From NCBI GenBank assembly GCA_965243625.1, contig CBDEVI010000002.1:321396-385395 (forward strand): 64,000 bases of DNA. Direction: 5' to 3'. A program made the position numbers and the translations under genes. The stretch comes from Chloroflexota bacterium. Lineage in GTDB: Bacteria; Chloroflexota; UBA11872. The notes under the pieces are model-generated. The model ran no database searches. It saw nothing but the letters and a program-made list of their open reading frames with translations, and had not been told where the DNA came from. Shown in pieces: positions 6,591 to 60,600 of this stretch. The stretch's first letter is position 1. Every line of letters begins with the position of its first letter.

Positions 6591-7101
6591 GCCACCGTCG
6601 GCGGCGATTGGTCGTCGCAGTTAGACACGGTGTCAGGTCAGGGCTCGCACAGCGTTTAGCAGAGCGGATTCGAAACGGTCGAGCTTGCGTAATTCCATCG
6701 GGCTGTGGGTGCTCGGGTGTTTGCCCCTGGGGACTGGCGCACCTTGGGCTCGTGAAGTGGACGTTGCATGCCGGTGTGACCAAGGCGGTAAAGGCGTCGA
6801 GCTGGGGTGCTGCTATTGCTCGAACGGCTTCCGGCCGGGATGCAGGCTCAAGGGCAAGAACTTAGCTGGCGCCGGCGGGGAGCTCTATCGCCGGCGACGG
6901 GTGGACGATCGTTCGGCAGATTGCCGGGTCTTCGGCCAAGATCGCGTCGACCCGCCGAGCGCTACCAATCTCGCCGACTCCCGGAGTGCACTCCTTCTGT
7001 GGGTGAAGCCCTCGTGGCCGTTGCGAATGTGCGGAGTACCGACCACATGGCAGCAGCAATGCGGGAGGGCGAGGCAGGGCCGGCAGAAGCACCGGCTGAC
7101 T

Positions 7102-7305
7102 TTACGGACGATCACCTAGCGTAGTTGCACCACATCCATGAAGCGATGGGTGCCGAGCGCTCGGGGGATTCGGGCCTGGCGCAACGGCCACGAGGTCGGC
7201 AATGTCGTAGGCCGGGTAGTCCGGGGGCAGCCAGTCCCGCAAATCCGGGGGCAGCCGCAGGGTCTGGTTGGGCTCGTAGGGGCGGAAGGTCGTCGGCATG
7301 GGCAA
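7102..7305 (-). pseudogene. IS1182-family (IS5 superfamily) transposase, N-terminal fragment.
   Basis: Translation MPMPTTFRPYEPNQTLRLPPDLRDWLPPDYPAYDIADLV matches the conserved IS1182 N-terminus (Y-x-PNQ-x-LLP...L-x-DWLPED). The ORF terminates after 67 aa and the downstream frames are degenerate. Confidence 0.55.
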
Positions 7306-7410
7306 TCTGCTCAGTCAACGGCTTGACCGATGATCCCCTGTTTCTACGGCGCAGACTCCTAGGTCGGCGAAACAGCGCCGACCGCCTGTCCAAAGGCATA
7401 TGACAGAATT

Positions 7411-7881
7411 CTATTTTGCGCAGAATTCACTAACAGATGCGTAGACAATAACGCCGGTAAACAAGACTGAATAGATAGCTGGTAGCGCCTTCTCGACGTG
7501 GGTCAACTTCCAATATCTGTTGCTCTTGACACCCGTGGATAGCGGGTCCCACTCATCCGTAAAAAACGCAAATTCCAGCTTTGTCTCCAATTCGTGCAGC
7601 ACTCTAAACTTATTGCTGTTAAGCTGCTTATAGGATTGGATGATGACAACCCATGCACCAGACAAGCAAAGCCCGATTATGCCAATCACCAAAAGGACTA
7701 TAAATTCTGACACTTGTCCACTCCCGAACCTAAGTAGTGCGGCGATGAATACTATTAGTCCTGTAAGTAGACCAGCAAATAATCGGTTAGCCGAATCACG
7801 TCGTTGACTCACACGGTCAGCAAGCTCTGAGTGAAGTTTGTAAATCTCTAAGAGTTGATTCTGTGAGGAATCAGCCACCAT
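7411..7881 (-). CDS. Small membrane protein of 156 aa with 2-3 TM helices (SLATT-like pore/effector candidate). Translationally coupled to the upstream TIR-like gene.
   Basis: Hydrophobic segments LFAGLLTGLIVFIAALL, FIVLLVIGIIGLCLSGAWVVII and AIYSVLFTGVIVYASV. The start overlaps the TIR gene stop (TAATG). Low GC (~45%) against a ~68% background. Confidence 0.6.
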   Translation of the reverse strand: MVADSSQNQLLEIYKLHSELADRVSQRRDSANRLFAGLLTGLIVFIAALLRFGSGQVSEFIVLLVIGIIGLCLSGAWVVIIQSYKQLNSNKFRVLHELETKLEFAFFTDEWDPLSTGVKSNRYWKLTHVEKALPAIYSVLFTGVIVYASVSEFCAK

Positions 7882-27904: not shown

Positions 27905-28099
27905 GAGCTCCTACTGAACGCCTTCCGCCTGCAAGGCGAAGGTCGGGATGGGGGTCGGCGGCTTCGTAGCCTACCTGCTGCGCGGGCGAGACTTCGGTCA
28001 CAAATCCGCCATTTCGGGAGCCTTGGCACGGTTCGTGGTCGGCCTGCCTCGTTCGTGGCGATCCCGTCGGCAGGCTCTGTCGGACCACCGCCCAGTTCC

Positions 28100-28290
28100 G
28101 TCATTCCCGCGAAGGCGGGAATCCACCTTGCCTCCCGCAACGCGTGGCGCAGGGGCAACCTTCGTGGGACTCGACCGGTGGCCCGCGCTGCGTGCAGCGT
28201 GGGACCGGCCGCAGTCGAGTCTCCCAGGCTGCGCGCAGCCTGGGCCACCGGGCCGTCGGTCATTCCGGCGAAAGCCGGAATCCAGTCCGG
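28100..28290. repeat. Composite REP-like cluster: GTCATTCCCGCGAAGGCGGGAATCC, the CCCGCGCTGCGTGCAGCGTGGGACCGG palindrome, and GTCATTCCGGCGAAAGCCGGAATCC.
   Basis: Imperfect palindromes identical in family to units at 53950, 56965, 60514, 59560, 60390, 63560. Confidence 0.7.
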
Positions 28291-33814: not shown

Positions 33815-33959
33815 GTTGCCGACGGTACCCCACATTCGCCGCATGCGACGTGCTCGATTCTGGCTGGCCGTTCCGCGGCCCCGCCCTGCCGGCTGCTTGA
33901 CAGGCCTCGATGCCGCCGGAAATACTCCGCGCCAACTGAATACCCAAACACCGTTCGTT

Positions 33960-34125
33960 CAGGTGCCCACCTAGGGAGAATAGGGAAGGCGGTGAGAATC
34001 CGCCGCGGTTGCGCCACTGTAAGCGGGATTTTGGAGCCGGAACCCACTGTCGACCGTCAGATGGGAAGGGCCCGGCAGACCACCTAAGCCCGTAAGCCAG
34101 GAGACCTGCCTGAGCGAGAGGTGAC
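33960..34125 (+). promoter_or_regulatory. Cobalamin (AdoCbl) riboswitch upstream of the B12 transporter/salvage operon.
   Basis: Conserved elements GGGAAGG, GGTGAGAATCC, GCCACTG and B12-box AAGCCAGGAGACCTGCC in the canonical order. Confidence 0.75.
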
Positions 34126-34219
34126 CACTCTCCGCCATAGAGAGGGTCCTCGCGGTCAGGTCGTTGCACCTGGCACACGGAAGCCCAGGTCTCCAGCGGA
34201 GAGCCGCTGGAGGTGAGGC

Positions 34220-52974: not shown

Positions 52975-53727
52975 TTGACTGCACCCGCCGACCTCCTCAA
53001 CCTTCACCTCGCCGCCCTGTTCACCCGGGACGAGCAGGGAAACCTCGTCGCCACCAACGACCCCGAGCCCGACCGGGTCGCCGCTCCGCGCCTCTACCTT
53101 GGTCGAAGCACCGAAGGCACCGTGCTGCGCTTCCGACGCGGCATGGACGAGTCAACCCGAGCCGCCCTGCGCGACCTGGCGGCCCCGGACTTGACCCCAA
53201 ACGATCCCAACCGCGAGCCGGTGAACAAAGCGGCCATGTTGGACCTGCTCGCTGCCGAGCAACCGATCCAAAACATCTACTTCGGCCCGGCGTTCAGCTT
53301 CCCCGGTGCAGAAGCCGTCACGAATACCTTCCGTCAATCCGGCGAAGGCCGGAATCCAGATCCGAGCACCGCCGACGTCATCGAAATCTCCCGCTCCACC
53401 ACCCACCAGCTCAGCCCCGAGTTCGCCTGGCTGGCCGACGAGCTGACGGTCCGCGACCCCGTCATGGCTGTGGTCGTCGACGGCCTCGCGGTCTCCGTGT
53501 GCTTCAGCGCCCGCGCCACCCCCGCCGCCTCCGAAGCCGGCGTCGAGACCCTCCCCGAGCACCGCGGCCGCCGCTACGCCGGGGCCGTCACCGCGGCCTG
53601 GGCGGACGCGGTGCAGCGCCAGGGACGCATCCCCCTCTACAGCACCTCGTGGACCAACCACGCCTCCCGCCGCGTCGCCGCCCGCCTGGGCCTCATCCAA
53701 TACGCCACCGACTTCCACATCACGTAA
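52975..53727 (+). CDS. GNAT-family N-acetyltransferase-like protein carrying an in-frame REP-unit insertion.
   Basis: C-terminal GNAT core ...HRGRRYAGAVTAAWADAVQRQGRIPLYSTSWTNHASRRVAARLGL. Residues ...FRQSGEGRNPDPS... are encoded by GTCAATCCGGCGAAGGCCGGAATCC at 53335-53360. Confidence 0.55.
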   Translation: MTAPADLLNLHLAALFTRDEQGNLVATNDPEPDRVAAPRLYLGRSTEGTVLRFRRGMDESTRAALRDLAAPDLTPNDPNREPVNKAAMLDLLAAEQPIQNIYFGPAFSFPGAEAVTNTFRQSGEGRNPDPSTADVIEISRSTTHQLSPEFAWLADELTVRDPVMAVVVDGLAVSVCFSARATPAASEAGVETLPEHRGRRYAGAVTAAWADAVQRQGRIPLYSTSWTNHASRRVAARLGLIQYATDFHIT

Positions 53728-53894: not shown

Positions 53895-53980
53895 CACGTC
53901 CGACTCCCTCTCCCACGGGGAGAGAGCTGGGGTGAGGGGTTCCGCGCCGTCATTCCGGCGCACGCCGGAATCCAGGCCCC
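53895..53980. repeat. Composite REP cluster: CCCTCACCCCAGCTCTCTCCCCGTGGGAGAGGG family (inverted orientation) plus GTCATTCCGGCGCACGCCGGAATCC.
   Basis: Family matches at 58085, 59415, 60545 and 28103, 56965, 60514. Confidence 0.7.
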
Positions 53981-54331: not shown

Positions 54332-55111
54332 CTATCGTTCACGAACCCCAGACGGCAGAAGTGGTCGGACGCCAGAATCTGACAGTGATGGCCTGATAGC
54401 TACGTTCGGGGCCAATGGAAGCCACCACTCGACGTTCGGAATCGCAAGTTGCGATGAATCGTAGAAACGAGGGAGCACAATCGGATTGCTACCAATCACA
54501 AACTCATATTGAAGACCAGAATTCGCAGTAATGCAAAGCTCAGACTCGTTGATGATCTCAAGTGTCCTTCCAAACATGCGCAGGGAGTCAGCCCTAGCAT
54601 TCTGGACCATTTCTGGACTATGCAAATCCGCATATTCTGAGGGGGTCACCGATTCTCCAGTTTCCGATTCGTGCCTGGCTATAGTCTCCGCAATAATGTT
54701 CTCGTCTACGCTGTCAGGCAATGAGTCAAGAGCATCTGGTGTGCGTTTGATCTGTGTATAGTAGAAAATGTCCAAGAACTCCTTTTCTTCGACTTTGAGT
54801 TTCGGAACATTCTTTGACAGGGATGATTCGACTATACGATTCAGTATCGGTGACACTCTGTCTTCTATGTAGGCAAGGAACCGCTCGACCCGATAGTCTC
54901 TGCCACCGTCAAAGGTATTCTGGCTGTAAAGATGAGTTTCTGCAAAGACATTCTTTGGCGTAGTCCAAAAGATTCCTTTGCATGGATGATCTTTCATGAA
55001 TACATAGAGCTTGCCATTGTCGTCCGTGAAGCGTCGCAAGATCACTTCCGGTACATAGTGCTGGCGTTTTCGCTCGTCCGCTTTCGGATTGGAGGGCAGT
55101 GTGCCATTCAC
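54332..55111 (-). CDS. DUF4238-domain protein, low GC.
   Basis: N-terminal QHYVPEVILRRF is the DUF4238 hallmark (HYVPxxxLRxF). ~45% GC. Start codon overlaps the stop of the upstream restriction-modification gene. Confidence 0.75.
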   Translation of the reverse strand: MNGTLPSNPKADERKRQHYVPEVILRRFTDDNGKLYVFMKDHPCKGIFWTTPKNVFAETHLYSQNTFDGGRDYRVERFLAYIEDRVSPILNRIVESSLSKNVPKLKVEEKEFLDIFYYTQIKRTPDALDSLPDSVDENIIAETIARHESETGESVTPSEYADLHSPEMVQNARADSLRMFGRTLEIINESELCITANSGLQYEFVIGSNPIVLPRFYDSSQLAIPNVEWWLPLAPNVAIRPSLSDSGVRPLLPSGVRER

Positions 55112-55112
55112 C

Positions 55113-58031
55113 TTAGAACGACCTCGTCAGATTGAGTTCCAACAGCGCCCGCAGGGCGTCTTCGTCGGAGATGTCGGCGGGCCAGCCGTAGGCGGCGGCT
55201 ACGGCGGTGTCTAGGGTGGCGTGGGCGTTGGCGAGCCATTGGGGGCGCTGGTTGTAGAGGTTGGTGAGGGTGCGTTTCTTGAGCTGCTCCAGGTCGGCGC
55301 CGGCGGTGGGGACGGGGCGCTTGGGGTAGCCAGTGACGGGTTCGTCGATCCACTCCACCCAGTCGGGCGGGTTTAGCCAGTTGTCGCGCAGTTCGACCAG
55401 GCGGCGGGCGGCTTCGGCGATGGCGGCGGCGCGCGGGTCGTCCGCGTAGTCGGCGGCGGGGACGTCGGGCGTCAGGCCCTCGGGAAACGGGAACGTCGCG
55501 AAGGTGGTGGTGGGCGTGTAGCGCGGGTCGTTGCCCACGCCGAGCCAGGTTCCGAGCCGTAGAGACCACGCCTCGTGGAAGCGGCTGTGCAGGATGCCGA
55601 AGGTGGTGTCGTCGTCGCGGGCGGTGACGATGAGTTGCTGATCAGGGCAGACGCGGGAATCGAGCCAGACGAATAGTCGGTGTCTCGCGACCATTGGTGT
55701 AGCGATATAGCGAGAGAGGGTCCGAAAGGCTCGCCACATACCGGGTCTTGCCTCGCCGTAGCGCCACCAATAGCGGCGGTAGGCTTCGCGGCGGTTCCGC
55801 TGGCGCATCGGGTAGACGCGATCCTTCACCCAACGGAACGGCTCCTCGTAGAGCGCGGCGTCGGCTTCGCTGATTTCGGTGCCGAAGTCGATGATCCACT
55901 TGCCTGCTGAGCGGCCGGTGAGATCCTTCCCGTTGACCCAAGGCTTTAGTACGTCGGCATTGGATCGCCCGTTCGGATTGGCCGGCAGGCGGAGCCACTC
56001 GCGAGCCTTGTCGCCCGGGAGGTCAAACCGACCATTCTTGGTGGTACCCCTGAATGAGACATGGCGATTTGTCCCTAACTTTGCAGCCTCGACCAAACTG
56101 GATCTGTCCCCTGACAAATCAGAATTTATTCGAGTAGTTTCCTTCCCGTTGAGATAGCGAACCGCAGAAGTGTCCTTCTGCGTGAAGCAAACGAGCGAGA
56201 CTCGCACCGCCGCACCATCGACTACCCACGGTTCATCGGACCAGGCATCAGAAAGATCGGCCTCTCTGACAACGCTATCGAGCACAGCACGATTGGCACC
56301 GCCTCGAATTGAATTGGTGGCCACAAGGCCGGCGCGTTGGACTCGCCCGTCGGCCACGAGCCGCTGGGCCTTAGCGAACCAGAAGCACACCAGATCGGCG
56401 CCGCCCGGAACTCGGTCCTCATAAACCGTGCGCAGACATTCCGTATACGTGTTCCCAAGCACACTCCGCATTAGCTGGACACCGAGAAACGGCGGATTGC
56501 CGATCACCACGCCGGCGTCTGGCCAGTCCGGTTCCTTGCCGTCCTCGGTCAGCACCGCGTCGCGGCATTCGATGGTGTCGAGCGGCTGCAGGATGGGGTC
56601 GCGGGACTCGGCGAAGCCGTTGCGCAGCATCCACTGGATCTCGCCAATCCACACCGAAACGCGGGCCAGCTCGGCGGCGTAGGGGTTGATCTCGATGCCC
56701 TTGACGTTGGCGGGGCCGATGGTGGGGAATTGCCGCTCCAGTCCCAGCGACTGCGCTTCGAGCTGCACCTGGTGCTCCAGGTCCTTGAGCGCCTGGAGCG
56801 CCAGGTAGAGGAAGTTGCCCGAGCCGCAGGCGGGATCGAGCACGGTGAAGACGCGCAGGCGCTCTAGGAAGTCTTGCAGCAGCCGCTCGGCTCGGTCGCG
56901 GCGGCGTCTTTCTTCGGCGGCCGCGCTGGATCTCCCGCGTTGGAGATCCCCGGCGCGACTCACGGAAACTGGATTCCGGCCTTCGCCGGAATGACGGAGG
57001 CGGGCCGCCTCGGCGGAGCTCAATTCGGCGGCGATCAGGTCTTTGGCCGTCTGCCATTCGGCCAGCCACGGGCGGATGATGACCGGCTCTACGATGAGCA
57101 TAATCTTGTCGCGGTCGGTGTAGTGCGCGCCGAGCTGCGCGCGCTTGCCGGGGTCCAGTCCACGCTCGAATAGCGTGCCCAGGATGGACGGGTCGACCTC
57201 GGACCAGTCCAGCGCGCCCGCGTTGCGCACGGTCTCGATCTGGGCCCGGTCCAGCGGCAGGGCGGAGTCATCGTCGAAGAGCCCGCCGTCGAACCACGCC
57301 ACGGACTCGAAGCCGACGCGGCCGCCCGCGTGCATGGCCCCGAACAGGTCGCTGGCCAGGTCGGGAAAGTCGCGGGGTTGACTGATGGCGTGGTCGAGCA
57401 TGCGCGTGAACAGGTTGTTGGGCAGCAGGCCCACGTCCTCGGCGAACATGCAGAAGACCAGCCGGTTGACGAAGTGAGCCACGGCCTGCGGGTCGTGGCC
57501 GCGGTCCCGCAGCGATTGCGCCAGCGTGGCGAAGCGCTGCGCCGCACGCTCGGTGATGTCCTGCCGCGTCTCGTCGGGCCGCAACCGTTCGGGGTCGCTC
57601 AGCGCCCATTTGAGCAAGTTGCGGGTGGCCGGGTCGCGCAGGTCCTCCAGCCCGAACTCATGGGTTTCGCTGACGCTGTTGGTCCAGTTGGTGCGGATGC
57701 GGAAGCGCTGCAGGTCGCAGACGATGAGCAGCGGCGGGTTCTCCAGCGCCAGGGCGTATTGCCGCAGTTGCCGGAAGGCGGCGTCCAGGTTGGCGTGGGG
57801 GCCCTTGTACTCCCAGCCGAAGTGGCCGCGCTTCCAGACATCGGCCCAGCCGCCCTCGCCCGAGTCCTTCCGCGCGCCGCGCTCGAAGCAGTAGCTCTCG
57901 CCGGTGGGGTCGGCTTCGATCGGGGTGGGCTCGCCGAGCATGCGGCAGAGGTCGTTGAAGTGCGACTGCGCGGCCTGGCTTTCCCTGAGCTCGGAGGCCG
58001 ACCACTTGGCGATGAAGGCGTCGGGGGTCAT
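55113..58031 (-). CDS. MmeI-family type IIL/IIG restriction-modification enzyme (N-terminal PD-ExK endonuclease + gamma-class N6-adenine methyltransferase + target-recognition domain), 972 aa.
   Basis: N-terminus ...KWSASELRESQAAQSHFNDLCRMLG...WADVWKRGHFGWEYKGPHANLDAAFRQLRQYA matches the MmeI nuclease domain (D-x-EYK). Methyltransferase motif I DPACGSGNFL and motif IV NPPF (VIGNPPFLGV). Contains an in-frame REP insertion (...RLRHSGEGRNPVSVSRAGDLQRGRSS...). Confidence 0.8.
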   Translation of the reverse strand: MTPDAFIAKWSASELRESQAAQSHFNDLCRMLGEPTPIEADPTGESYCFERGARKDSGEGGWADVWKRGHFGWEYKGPHANLDAAFRQLRQYALALENPPLLIVCDLQRFRIRTNWTNSVSETHEFGLEDLRDPATRNLLKWALSDPERLRPDETRQDITERAAQRFATLAQSLRDRGHDPQAVAHFVNRLVFCMFAEDVGLLPNNLFTRMLDHAISQPRDFPDLASDLFGAMHAGGRVGFESVAWFDGGLFDDDSALPLDRAQIETVRNAGALDWSEVDPSILGTLFERGLDPGKRAQLGAHYTDRDKIMLIVEPVIIRPWLAEWQTAKDLIAAELSSAEAARLRHSGEGRNPVSVSRAGDLQRGRSSAAAEERRRRDRAERLLQDFLERLRVFTVLDPACGSGNFLYLALQALKDLEHQVQLEAQSLGLERQFPTIGPANVKGIEINPYAAELARVSVWIGEIQWMLRNGFAESRDPILQPLDTIECRDAVLTEDGKEPDWPDAGVVIGNPPFLGVQLMRSVLGNTYTECLRTVYEDRVPGGADLVCFWFAKAQRLVADGRVQRAGLVATNSIRGGANRAVLDSVVREADLSDAWSDEPWVVDGAAVRVSLVCFTQKDTSAVRYLNGKETTRINSDLSGDRSSLVEAAKLGTNRHVSFRGTTKNGRFDLPGDKAREWLRLPANPNGRSNADVLKPWVNGKDLTGRSAGKWIIDFGTEISEADAALYEEPFRWVKDRVYPMRQRNRREAYRRYWWRYGEARPGMWRAFRTLSRYIATPMVARHRLFVWLDSRVCPDQQLIVTARDDDTTFGILHSRFHEAWSLRLGTWLGVGNDPRYTPTTTFATFPFPEGLTPDVPAADYADDPRAAAIAEAARRLVELRDNWLNPPDWVEWIDEPVTGYPKRPVPTAGADLEQLKKRTLTNLYNQRPQWLANAHATLDTAVAAAYGWPADISDEDALRALLELNLTRSF

Positions 58032-58084: not shown

Positions 58085-58140
58085 GGAGCCGTTTTCCCCC
58101 TCACCCCAACCCTCTCCCACGGCGGGGAGAGGGGGCCGAA
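58085..58140. repeat. REP-like unit CCCCTCACCCCAACCCTCTCCCACGGCGGGGAGAGGGGGCC between the PIN-like and MmeI-like genes.
   Basis: Family matches at 53895, 59415, 60545. Confidence 0.7.
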
Positions 58141-58202: not shown

Positions 58203-59261
58203 TCAATCTTGACTTACCGATGTTGACAACACTTCAGGCTCTGGTCTGATTGGTGGGGTTCCTAGATGCATGTGTCCACTCAGGTTCACAAACGATCCTT
58301 GCACAGCACGTTCCGACCCGTCAGACAGCTCATTCAGTAGTACGACCTCCCCAGGCGTTAGATCGCAGAGCTTTCTTTCGTCCAGAAGGTAGCGACACGA
58401 GCCTGAGAAGCGGAAATCTAAAGCACTTGTCTTGTCAGCGCTTTCCCATACGTCCGTGACACCGAGGCGGACCTCAATTATCGAGGCCTGATCAGTCGTT
58501 AGCAGTGTCTGCTTGACTTGGCCGACCCGCTTCGGTCGGCAACCACTATTCGATGCCAATTCCTCAACGACTGAGCCGAGCGCCTCGTAGACGAAGGCAA
58601 ATACCAAGTTATCCGGCAAGGGCTCCATCTCACTCTTCAGTTCCGCCAGCAAAGATTCCATGGTGGGATGATAGGTCAGGCTCCGATCATCCGAGATCTC
58701 GCCGGCCTCGGCCTGCAACGTAGGATGCAGACTGCTCTTGTTGCGGTGACCACGAAAATCTGAGTCACTGGAAACAAAGACGACGTTGCATTTTGCGAGC
58801 AGATCCAAACACTGCTCCCAGATTTGGCAATCCGACCACTCGGCACTCTTGTGGCTGGGCGGTTGCTCGGATCGGTGTCGCAGCTCTGCACGCTGCCGCA
58901 CCTCATCCGCTTCGGGAACGACCACGGCGCCAAGGTCCTCTCCCCGGGCGAGCGATCTGGCGCGTGCCGCTATCGTCGCGTCGTCGGGCCCCTGCCAGCC
59001 ATTCACTACTCCTAGAAAGCGTCCCAGCCACTGCAAATGGCCGTCGATTGTCTTTCTCTTTCCCGCCGCGTGGTCGATTAGCTTCCGTTCACATTCCTGG
59101 GCGACAACTTCCGGCACGACCAGTTGCATCCCACGACGATAGAGATAGTGCTTGAGTGCTGAACCGCGTCCCGAAGTTAGGCCAGTCTCGTTGATAAGCG
59201 TACTGGAATCCAAGACCAGCACTTCTTTCGCTGTAACGCCCGCAAACTCTTCAGCGTGCAT
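58203..59261 (-). CDS. PIN-like domain protein (N-terminal PIN fold + uncharacterised C-terminal domain), 352 aa.
   Basis: N-terminal VLVLDSSTLI... with conserved acidic residues spaced as in PIN. Moderately lower GC. Same strand as, and immediately upstream of, the MmeI-like gene. Confidence 0.6.
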   Translation of the reverse strand: MHAEEFAGVTAKEVLVLDSSTLINETGLTSGRGSALKHYLYRRGMQLVVPEVVAQECERKLIDHAAGKRKTIDGHLQWLGRFLGVVNGWQGPDDATIAARARSLARGEDLGAVVVPEADEVRQRAELRHRSEQPPSHKSAEWSDCQIWEQCLDLLAKCNVVFVSSDSDFRGHRNKSSLHPTLQAEAGEISDDRSLTYHPTMESLLAELKSEMEPLPDNLVFAFVYEALGSVVEELASNSGCRPKRVGQVKQTLLTTDQASIIEVRLGVTDVWESADKTSALDFRFSGSCRYLLDERKLCDLTPGEVVLLNELSDGSERAVQGSFVNLSGHMHLGTPPIRPEPEVLSTSVSQD

Positions 59262-59390: not shown

Positions 59391-59700
59391 TTGGTGGGAA
59401 TGATGGGCCGGTCCATGCCCCTCACCCTAGCCCTCTCCCCGCGGGAGAGGAGACTGGATTGGGGCGATGGGCTGCACGTCGGAGGTTGCGAACTCTTGAT
59501 TCCTCGCTGCGCTCGGAATGACGGTTGGGGACCGCGTGCGTCGCGGGCCTCCCACGCTGCCCGCCGCGCGGGCCACCGGGCGTGGCACAACGGAGTTGTT
59601 GCCGTGCGCAACGCGGGCGGGCACAAGGCCCGCCCCTACGCGGGCACGCCGCGTCACCCCCGCCGCCGCGCGGGGTGTGGTTTCACTTGGCCCCCAAGGC
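59391..59700. repeat. Composite REP cluster with three families: the CCCTCACCCTAGCCCTCTCCCCGCGGGAGAGG family, the GATTCCTCGCTGCGCTCGGAATGAC family, and the CCCACGCTGCCCGCCGCGCGGGCCACCGGGC palindrome.
   Basis: Direct sequence identity to units elsewhere in the window. Spurious ORFs arise from the repeats. Confidence 0.7.
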
Positions 59701-60276
59701 CTTCTCCATCCGGTGCACGGCGGTTGATCCCGCCACTAGCCGCACGAGGTGGCCGTCCCAGGTTTTGGTGGTGGTGTAGCCGAGCCGCTGGTAGAGGCGG
59801 ATGGCGCCTTTGTTTTCGGTGATTACTCCCAGCGACATGGTGTGCTTGCCCATGGCGCGGGCCTTTGCTTCGGCGGCTTGCATCAGGGCGGTGCCGATGC
59901 CGAGGCCGCGGATCGACGGATCGACGGCCAGGGCCTCCACGATGAACTCGTCGGGCGCGACGCCCTCGGACAGCAAGAGCAGGTTGCCCAGCATGCGGAA
60001 GGCCCGCACGGGCGTGAAGCGCAAGAACAGGGCGGTCAGGCTCAGGTGAAAGAACTCGCGGCTGCCCGACCTAAACGTGAGGATGCCGGCGAAGCGTCCG
60101 TCGACCGTGGCCGAAAAGCAGCTGGTCGTGTCGACCGAGTCTCGGAACAGCCGGATCAGGTCGTCCGCGTGGCGGAAGCCGAGGCGGAACTTCTTGGCGA
60201 ACGCGCCATACGCCACCCGCAGGGCGTCGTCGACGAATTCGGCTTCGATGCCTTCAACGATCGCGACGTTTCCCAC
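59683..60276 (-). CDS. GNAT-family N-acetyltransferase (probable GTG start ~60276; the longer ORF runs into repeats).
   Basis: ...LAVDPSIRGLGIGTALMQAAEAKARAMGKHTMSLGVITENKGAIRLYQRLGY is the GNAT acetyl-CoA-binding core. Confidence 0.65.
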   Translation of the reverse strand: MGNVAIVEGIEAEFVDDALRVAYGAFAKKFRLGFRHADDLIRLFRDSVDTTSCFSATVDGRFAGILTFRSGSREFFHLSLTALFLRFTPVRAFRMLGNLLLLSEGVAPDEFIVEALAVDPSIRGLGIGTALMQAAEAKARAMGKHTMSLGVITENKGAIRLYQRLGYTTTKTWDGHLVRLVAGSTAVHRMEKALGAK

Positions 60277-60384
60277 GGTTGGTGTGTTTGCGCTCGACGG
60301 TGCTCGCAGCGCCCGTAGCGTAGGGCACCGGGCTGGGAGGCGTTCCGGCCGGCGCGCGTGGGGCTTGGCTCGTGCCGGCGGCGC

Positions 60385-60600
60385 TCCCACGCTGCCCGCA
60401 GCGTGGGCCACCGGGCCTCGGATCACCCTCATCCTCGCTCTCTCCCGTCAAGGAAGAGGGAATGAGCCCCAGTCGTCACCAGGCATCCGGCGTGCCTCCG
60501 GATTCGACCGGACTGGATTCCGGCTTCCGCCGGAATGACGGCGGGGAACCCCTCACCCCAACCCTCTCCCACAGTGGGGAAAGGGGGCCGGAGCCTGCCG
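60385..60600. repeat. Composite REP cluster: CCCACGCTGCCCGCAGCGTGGGCCACCGGGC + GGATTCCGGCTTCCGCCGGAATGAC + CCCTCACCCCAACCCTCTCCCACAGTGGGGAAAGGGGGCC.
   Basis: Three of the four repeat families occur side by side, as at 59391-59700. Confidence 0.7.

Follow-up and report, generated by a model that had tools for sequence, protein, structure and literature searches.

An enzyme gene of a restriction-modification system in a member of the Chloroflexota carries, within its coding sequence and in frame, a copy of a short dispersed hairpin repeat. The stretch of DNA that was analysed, called the window below, comprises 64,000 nucleotides (nt) of the assembly GCA_965243625.1 (Chloroflexota bacterium, contig CBDEVI010000002.1, positions 321,396 to 385,395 of the forward strand; coordinates below count from its first letter). 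The gene in question is an intact member of the MmeI family (type IIL restriction-modification enzymes) that encodes 972 amino acids (aa) at 55113-58031 on the minus strand, and its insert occupies 56943-56999. The insert is a single hairpin of the repetitive extragenic palindromic (REP) type, of the CGTC-1/NTS kind, followed by a unique tail. We consider it probable that a selfish or neutral element of this type became inserted in frame in a permissive loop of the enzyme, and that such insertions were afterwards remodelled by recombination with other copies of the repeat.

The limits of the insert follow from codon-level comparison with positional orthologues that lack it. The span between the anchors LAEW and VLDPACG is 186 nt in the uninserted orthologues L001 and L002 and 243 nt in the window, and the flanks of the insert match the orthologues codon by codon (A-A-R on one side, Q-R-G-R-x-x-A-A-x-E-E-x-R-R-R-D on the other). 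The inserted DNA, CTCCGTCATTCCGGCGAAGGCCGGAATCCAGTTTCCGTGAGTCGCGCCGGGGATCTC, supplies 19 codons (residues 345-363, LRHSGEGRNPVSVSRAGDL), and since its length is 57 nt the reading frame is kept. The added residues are hydrophilic and rich in glycine and proline, the hairpin unit among them being translated as RHSGEGRNP. An earlier note on this stretch had described a hairpin repeat and a second palindrome, both read in frame, in the linker N-terminal to methyltransferase motif I. Both sequences are present exactly and are translated in the open reading frame (ORF) as ...RLRHSGEGRNPVSVSRAGDLQRGRSSAAAEE..., and the site indeed lies in that linker, between motifs X and I and 36 residues upstream of motif I; the inserted segment itself is shorter than the 25-30 aa or so that had been estimated.

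The hairpin unit, CGTCATTCCGGCGAAGGCCGGAATCCAG, is found at 56969-56996 on the minus strand, with the core 25-mer GTCATTCCGGCGAAGGCCGGAATCC exact at 56971-56995. Read with its flanks as CGTC-ATTCCGGC-GAAG-GCCGGAAT-CCAG, it folds as a hairpin and has all features described for CGTC-1 REPs, i.e. the CGTC tag, an 8-bp stem starting with A/T pairs, a 4-nt loop (here GAAG) and an unpaired CCA tail. It differs from the 28-nt NTS consensus, CGTCATTCCCGCGMAVGCGGGAATCYRG, at two positions, which together make up one compensatory flip of a stem pair from C:G to G:C. The unit also fits the published regular expression for the SRM ('Ssn-related motif'), a pattern that is loose when used by itself, with three matches in the window against 0.98 per shuffled sequence. 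Stem covariation was assessed on a small and related set of 17 copies from the window and related loci, in which 95.6% of the cells are paired; stem pair 10-19 occurs as G:C in eight copies, C:G in seven and A:T in one, and the covariation score was reached by none of 500 shuffles. Searches of Rfam at gathering thresholds returned no family for the repeats, the only match in the window being a cobalamin riboswitch (RF00174, 104 bits) at 33944-34127 on the plus strand. Taken by its sequence features, the repeat fits membership of the CGTC-1 REP/dRS3/NTS (SRM) family.

Including the insert, the window holds six copies of the hairpin, the other five (at most two mismatches) being located at 28100, 28259, 53333, 53949 and 60515; no copies appeared in 100 dinucleotide-preserving shuffles. 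All six match the NTS consensus with at most three mismatches, and further copies are present in the related loci L002 and L082-L089. The four intergenic family members that had been noted before (at 28103, 28259, 53950 and 60514) were all recovered, whereas the fifth copy, at 53333, had been missed and is itself intragenic and in frame, so that two of the six copies are read in frame inside genes. Two of the intergenic units (28099-28126 and 28258-28285, within 28099-28285, plus strand) lie between two minus-strand genes. The others are joined to a companion sequence, the B module (GGGAGAGAGCTGGGGTGAGGGG): one such composite with an NTS-type unit is found at 53918-53975 on the plus strand, in a B+A arrangement that also occurs inside the gene in alleles P0016 and P0022 of the MmeI family, and another at 60513-60570 on the minus strand, between genes for an ABC-2 permease and an acetyltransferase. 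A further B module (58097-58118, minus strand) closely precedes the start of the MmeI-family gene. In loci L085 and L088 the acetyltransferase encoded upstream of the MmeI homologue ends in a B module (...SPLPTEGEG), the repeat supplying its last codons and the stop; the apparent length of 249 aa of the acetyltransferase copy in the window (59683-60432) is a start-codon artefact.

The remainder of the insert is a tail of 26 nt (TTTCCGTGAGTCGCGCCGGGGATCTC, 56943-56968, minus strand), of which the window contains no second copy at up to three mismatches. The second palindrome of the earlier note (GGGGATCTCCAACGCGGGAGATCC, 56928-56951, minus strand) is composed of two unlike halves. Its 5' arm is insert tail and its 3' arm is made of ancestral host codons (QRGR), as seen by comparison with uninserted L001, which reads CGGCAACGCGGGAGGGCC where the host arm lies; the right half (CAACGCGGGAG...) codes for Q-R-G and is present also in uninserted orthologues. 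No other copy of this palindrome was found in the window, nor any match to its arm pattern in 89 fetched loci, and because of this uniqueness it does not belong to a repeat family, contrary to what had been supposed. The label miniature inverted-repeat transposable element (MITE), applied to the unit before, was dropped as well. Such elements are taken to be 70-300 bp long, with terminal inverted repeats of 15-30 bp and a target-site duplication; the insert is 57 nt long, neither terminal inverted repeats nor a target-site duplication were detected at it in the window allele, and apart from the internal 8-bp hairpin it contains no inverted repeat. A weak two-copy direct repeat of 14 nt over the right junction, reported by Tandem Repeats Finder, was judged to be no target-site duplication, because both copies are on one side of the insert. 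The idea that the tail is an inverted copy of neighbouring host DNA produced by fold-back synthesis was also abandoned, the score of the best match being reached by 5-10% of the controls (p ~0.05-0.1).

The gene that accommodates the insert is intact and has conserved catalytic motifs. Pfam matches are above cut-off for MmeI_N (1e-14), MmeI_hel (2e-12) and MmeI_Mtase (3e-31). The sole solved relative is MmeI (PDB 5HR4, E=7e-40), with which the protein agrees in domain order, in having the PD-ExK nuclease motif and in the gamma-class methyltransferase motifs X, I and IV. The protein differs from MmeI in that the models for the target recognition domain (TRD) and the C-terminal domain score below the 27-bit Pfam cut-off (MmeI_TRD 21.6 bits, MmeI_C 22.0 bits). 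Residues 54-330 can be aligned with MmeI residues 61-341 and residues 383-587 with MmeI 346-553. Between these blocks the host protein has about 52 residues against four in MmeI, thus some 48 extra: where MmeI has only these few residues, the subfamily of the host has a helical hairpin, to the predicted tip of which the window allele adds its 19 repeat-encoded residues. Residues D64, E74 and K76 align with the nuclease motif of MmeI (D-x(n)-E-x-K), and together with DPACGSGNFL (motif I, residues 399-408, 56808-56837, minus strand) and GNPPF (residues 511-515) they are invariant or nearly so in 81 homologues. The same degree of conservation is found for the motif-X-like GAHYTD (residues 301-306, 57114-57131, minus strand), which aligns with GAHYTS of MmeI and forms the upstream limit of the insert-bearing helical hairpin. 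The gene was compared with seven orthologues, and the ratio of nonsynonymous to synonymous substitution rates (dN/dS) came to 0.22-0.26 over its full length; within 300 nt to either side of the insert it was 0.10-0.27. These values show that the gene is under purifying selection, and restriction and modification activity can be predicted for the protein with its insert.

The site of insertion is probably a loop, within a part of the protein that is poorly conserved in any case. AlphaFold gives a helix from residue 307 to 351, a low-confidence loop at 352-359 (pLDDT below 50) and a second helix at 360-394, in a model that is weak overall (mean pLDDT 64, pTM 0.42), and predicts the insert to be at the tip of the helical hairpin between motif X and motif I. 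Among 120 homologues this linker is the only internal hot spot for insertions and deletions of more than eight residues, and nucleotide identity dips locally at residues 326-375. Alignment and model both support a permissive and poorly constrained loop.

The linker was compared with that of other members of the family. The set used consisted of the best 120 homologues (68-81% identity), and for ten positional orthologues the DNA was fetched. These ten share the neighbourhood of the gene, with ABC transporter and acetyltransferase genes on one side and GNAT_acetyltran and methyltransferase genes on the other; synteny is conserved with L002, a Chloroflexota metagenome-assembled genome (MAG; RHO3_bin_74). 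The nearest named relatives of both the MmeI-family gene and the GNAT gene are from Chloroflexota/Chloroflexi MAGs. The extra segment is absent in 109 of the 120 homologues, and in MmeI. Ten other homologues have an insertion and all are among the 31 closest ones (P0002, P0004, P0005, P0016, P0019, P0020, P0022, P0023, P0025 and P0031). This bears out the earlier description of a lineage-specific, frame-preserving intrusion by a repeat, and orthologues from many phyla were found to be free of the peptide, the presence of which in unrelated taxa would have pointed to a fortuitous similarity. Metagenomes were scanned with a 20-nt flank of the window allele in order to find the same strain with an empty or a different allele, and only 30 unrelated chance matches came up.

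The inserted relatives do not carry the segment of the window. At the same codon they have different in-frame mosaics of +26 to +62 aa, and linker lengths among the orthologues amount to +0, +19, +26, +29, +39, +49, +51, +57, +59 and +62 aa. The insertions of the eight relatives that were read at the DNA level measure +87, +147, +171, +117, +186, +117, +153 and +177 nt. The mosaics are assembled from the hairpin unit (RHSxxxxNP), a second hairpin module CTCCCTCTCCC...GGGAGAGGGCYGGGGTGAGGGG (LPLPxGEGxGEG) and a third module (SGSSTQTPLP), all of them frequent in intergenic DNA of the related loci and of the window. One allele, L084 (P0005), has in addition a (GGTTCC)5 hexanucleotide array encoding SGSGSGSGSG; this tract is in frame and slippage-prone, and the window allele is without one. 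Most inserted alleles have a common left junction, from which that of the window allele differs, and the right junction is common to the window and the P0016 group. In a local tree of residues 200-520, the uninserted P0003 and P0030 nest among inserted alleles, and events cannot be counted from it; a whole-protein neighbour-joining tree was discarded for this purpose, being scrambled by mosaicism in the TRD region. Phase variation, which had been suggested as a function of the insert, is not supported because the gene lacks a slippery tract. The ORF contains no homopolymer of seven or more and, as the only simple repeat, (GC)4, Tandem Repeats Finder giving two weak two-copy rows, and the lengths of the insertions are divisible by three.

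A few irregularities away from the linker were seen in other homologues. P0070 has an 8-aa insert, TPAPAKAG, that immediately follows the catalytic E-Y-K in its nuclease domain; judged by sequence, the insert could be a hairpin of the NTS type that is translated in the IPAKAG frame. The homologue in L028 (Terriglobia) is interrupted by about 1.25 kb near residue 940, and in L072 a duplicated C-terminal fragment follows the gene.

The same phenomenon occurs in a second gene of the window. At 52975-53727 on the plus strand, 1.4 kb from the MmeI-family gene and unrelated to a role in defence, lies a GNAT_acetyltran-like gene with an in-frame NTS-type unit at 53332-53359, translated as RQSGEGRNP. 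In a set of 120 homologues the segment is absent from distant ones (40-47% identity) and from four close ones, and most close relatives have variable mosaics of +16 to +116 aa that use the modules of the MmeI-family alleles; these include a unit with a nested hairpin, which reads EEPAPYSIRGGNP. The repeat process is thus not specific for the restriction gene, since the GNAT gene carries the same mosaics, and their occurrence in an unrelated gene points to a genome-wide process that is filtered by selection. Of the proposal that the linker of a defence gene is being diversified, the variable length (+0 to +62 aa) was confirmed; a mechanism special to defence was not, the GNAT gene behaving alike. 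In two GNAT alleles, P0158 and P0172, the NTS unit is translated in the two remaining frames (GPAKAGIQ and SFRRKRES), and the peptide downstream of it is in the +1 frame of the normal one. These alleles, frameshifted at the repeat array, are either pseudogenes or the result of assembly errors at hairpins, and because of them the repeat process cannot be called frame-preserving in all cases. Half-length GNAT homologues (139-196 aa) are also found, several of which may represent genes that were split at the repeat array.

In the scenario that we favour, a short dispersed stem-loop of the CGTC-1 REP/dRS3/NTS type with its 26-nt tail would have entered the coding sequence of the MmeI-type enzyme, and only those insertions that landed in permissive loops would have survived selection. 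Once one repeat was present, recombination, gene conversion or slippage involving genomic copies could reshape the insert into mosaics. It is this loop-restricted survival, together with remodelling after arrival of the first repeat, that would give the site the look of a hot spot. The element is probably a selfish or neutral passenger rather than a regulatory device, and the enzyme presumably tolerates it. A candidate partner for movement of the repeat, known from the literature, is the small GIY-YIG nuclease Ssn, which acts on single-stranded DNA (ssDNA).

Several points weigh against this scenario. It does not explain where the 26-nt tail came from. Independent insertions may number anywhere from one to three or more, so that there was either one old and heavily remodelled insertion or three or more separate gains, and the window allele could be a deletion derivative of an allele like P0016 or P0022. 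That insertions are always in frame is partly built into the comparison, as matches to full-length proteins miss alleles broken by out-of-frame insertions (ascertainment bias). Furthermore, tolerance of the insert by the enzyme is a prediction from the sequence, and the overall weakness of the AlphaFold model means that the exposed tip is deduced from local secondary structure. Finally, the in-gene units that were read at the DNA level in intact alleles all use the RHS...NP frame, even though five of the six frames are open. Pure neutrality does not predict such uniformity, which implies that the encoded peptide is under selection or that the orientation is biased.

The consistent use of one frame, giving a hydrophilic and loop-friendly peptide, would also fit if the linker of a defence enzyme were diversified adaptively, a variable loop being selected because it alters, for instance, the spacing of domains, the cut distance, oligomerisation or the ability to evade phage anti-restriction proteins. 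At least nine lengths occur at one codon among the 31 closest homologues, and the neighbourhood is variable and of the defence type, with PIN, DUF4238 and toxin-antitoxin genes. However, an acetyltransferase without a role in defence has the same and even larger mosaics, the insert is predicted to sit at the tip of a hairpin and not between domains, and most family members of other phyla are without it. Since the specificity region (about residues 500-800) moreover diversifies independently of the linker, we regard an adaptive role of this kind as unlikely. A role at the RNA level, whereby the hairpin in the mRNA would attenuate transcription or translation or serve as an RNase site that uncouples the nuclease from the methyltransferase half, is highly improbable. 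REPs are known as stabilisers and terminators of mRNA (PMC3733652), and the insert can form a stable, G+C-rich RNA hairpin of 8 bp followed by a second stem (z-score -2.3 for the whole 91 nt). Yet there is no T-run after the hairpin, a terminator scan had no match at the insert, the ORF continues in frame into conserved and selected downstream domains, and most orthologues work without the insert.

A function at the level of DNA likewise has little chance of being the explanation. The NTS hairpin on the sense strand would then be the target of an Ssn-type ssDNA nuclease or a recombination signal, and modulate horizontal replacement or recombination of the gene. The unit matches both the NTS consensus and the SRM pattern, its stem is perfect in the window copy, and the published NTS/SsnA system is strand-specific on ssDNA and lowers integration of NTS-bearing DNA (PMC11893778). 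In one Chloroflexota MAG (L015), moreover, NTS-like hairpins and an Ssn-like gene are found right after the MmeI homologue. Against this, the stems are broken in three of seven in-gene copies of relatives, as expected of decaying passengers, the mosaic breakpoints of the gene are near residues 500 and 800 and so away from the insert, and NTS copies are seldom intragenic (2%) in the published work (PMC11893778). Crude searches of the window and the ten closest loci, with a motif regular expression and with tblastn using approximate GIY-YIG queries, detected no Ssn-like gene; the best 120 matches of a protein search included none on a contig of 3,193,867 bp, which does not amount to a proper negative. 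The region of L015 concerned (6890-7490) has, after an MmeI homologue of 70% identity, two NTS-like hairpins, one with another nested in its loop, and then an ORF of 94 aa with a single GIY-YIG domain (Pfam PF01541, 4e-16). This ORF looks Ssn-like by sequence; it belongs to a very large protein family, with at least 7979 database matches and several clusters on many contigs.

Other features of the locus concern the genes around the insert-bearing ORF. The start of a DUF4238 gene (54332-55111, minus strand) overlaps the stop of the MmeI-family gene, and a PIN_12-domain gene (58203-59261, minus strand) occupies the other flank. In orthologous loci the flanking slot holds other cargo, including PIN/PhdYeFM pairs, IS481 and DDE transposases, HTH_3-Peptidase_M78 and SLFN/AlbA_2 genes, and it is a variable island. 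Within the gene, the nucleotide identity to positional orthologues is about 90%, drops to 46-70% at residues ~500-800 (about 55632-56534, minus strand; distal methyltransferase part and TRD) and then returns to about 85-94%. From its sequence profile the specificity region looks like a subject of cassette-like exchange or diversification. The insert itself was considered as a breakpoint of domain shuffling and rejected as such, sliding-window identity breaking near residues 500 and 800 and showing only a local dip at the linker.

MAGs of many phyla (loci L002-L081) also have the MmeI-family gene, with 61-80% identity of the protein and with two copies in some genomes. Groups represented include Chloroflexota, Binatia, Latescibacterota, Acidimicrobiia, Vicinamibacterales, Gemmatimonadota, Alpha- and Gammaproteobacteria and Spirochaetia. 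This wide spread suggests that the gene has been transferred horizontally to a large extent among members of one kind of community, and several MAG names, such as Candidatus Poriferisodalis, suggest that sponge microbiomes are concerned.

The findings extend in-frame palindromic repeats in functional genes to the Chloroflexota and to a restriction-modification enzyme, and tie the repeat to the recently described NTS/Ssn system, for which in-gene copies were reported to be rare. In each of two neighbouring genes there is a natural series of alleles at a single codon, with 0-62 extra residues in the MmeI-family gene and 0 to about 116 in the GNAT gene, and such a series is well suited for direct tests of how selfish DNA creates and reshapes protein segments. 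For annotation, it is useful to know that peptides like RHSGEGRNP or PLPxGEGxGEG, when met within enzymes of these MAGs, are recognisable as loops derived from repeats and not as domain features. A more far-reaching possibility is that CGTC-1/NTS hairpins and their companion modules form a genome-wide set of mosaic loops in enzymes that are translated and quickly remodelled, the remodelling being driven by Ssn-type nicking of ssDNA specifically at hairpins and by recombination among copies. We give this speculative idea a small chance only; if true, it would amount to a repeat-based generator of protein surface diversity, possibly under selection in a host-associated community.

It is interesting to compare the repeat with systems that have been described in other bacteria. 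CGTC-1 REPs were defined by a CGTC tag, an 8-bp stem starting with A/T pairs, a 4-nt loop and a CCA tail (Di Nocera et al. 2013, BMC Genomics 14:522; PMC3733652), and correspond to dRS3 in Neisseria and RPE-6 in Rickettsia conorii (PMC3733652). The copies described here resemble them in tag, stem, loop and tail, in being dispersed and mostly intergenic, between convergent or co-directional genes, and in that some copies are intragenic and in frame, encoding about 20-30 aa. CGTC REPs were listed for five phyla, Chloroflexi not being among them, and intragenic copies were commonest in R. conorii; the Rickettsia elements RPE-4 and RPE-6 are examples of intragenic in-frame CGTC REPs, for which a location in flexible linkers was suggested (PMC3733652). 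Different from these, the units found here join B, C and nested D modules in in-gene mosaics that reach about 60 aa in the MmeI-family gene and about 116 aa in the GNAT gene, and these mosaics vary among close relatives at one codon.

In the NTS/Ssn system, the NTS is bound by the GIY-YIG nuclease SsnA, a protein of 94 aa that cuts ssDNA upstream of the NTS on one strand only, and NTS-gene-NTS arrangements act in Neisseria transformation (PMC11893778). Genomes rich in SRM were reported to be enriched in symbionts (PMC11893778). The likeness is close, the 28-nt unit of the window being off the consensus by one compensatory flip, and in L015 an Ssn-like gene with NTS-like hairpins adjoins the MmeI homologue. 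A difference is that two of six window copies are in frame inside genes, against 2% of NTS inside genes in N. meningitidis (Chenal et al. 2025, Nat Commun 16:2388; PMC11893778); furthermore, a cognate Ssn was not found in the sequence of this genome that was available.

Rickettsia palindromic elements (RPE) are the precedent for palindromic repeats in frame in functional genes (Ogata et al. 2000, 2002, as cited in PMC10969869), and in-frame intragenic repeats of this sort are therefore already known; what is new is the phylum, Chloroflexota, and the kind of host gene, one for restriction-modification. As with RPE in that account, a probably selfish palindrome is in frame in a presumably functional gene and the added peptide would be compatible with the fold, and the MmeI-family gene likewise is an intact, conserved ORF with the repeat in frame. 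RPE-1, as described there, is about 100-150 bp long, single and largely conserved between species, whereas the element of the window is a modular unit of 28 nt, with copy number and composition that vary strongly between close relatives. Finally, the bacterial interspersed mosaic elements (BIMEs) of E. coli and the neisserial intergenic mosaic elements (NIMEs) also consist of short repeat modules in variable arrays, similar to the B+A composites in the intergenic DNA studied here. Those elements are extragenic, whereas in the Chloroflexota the mosaics are translated within enzymes.

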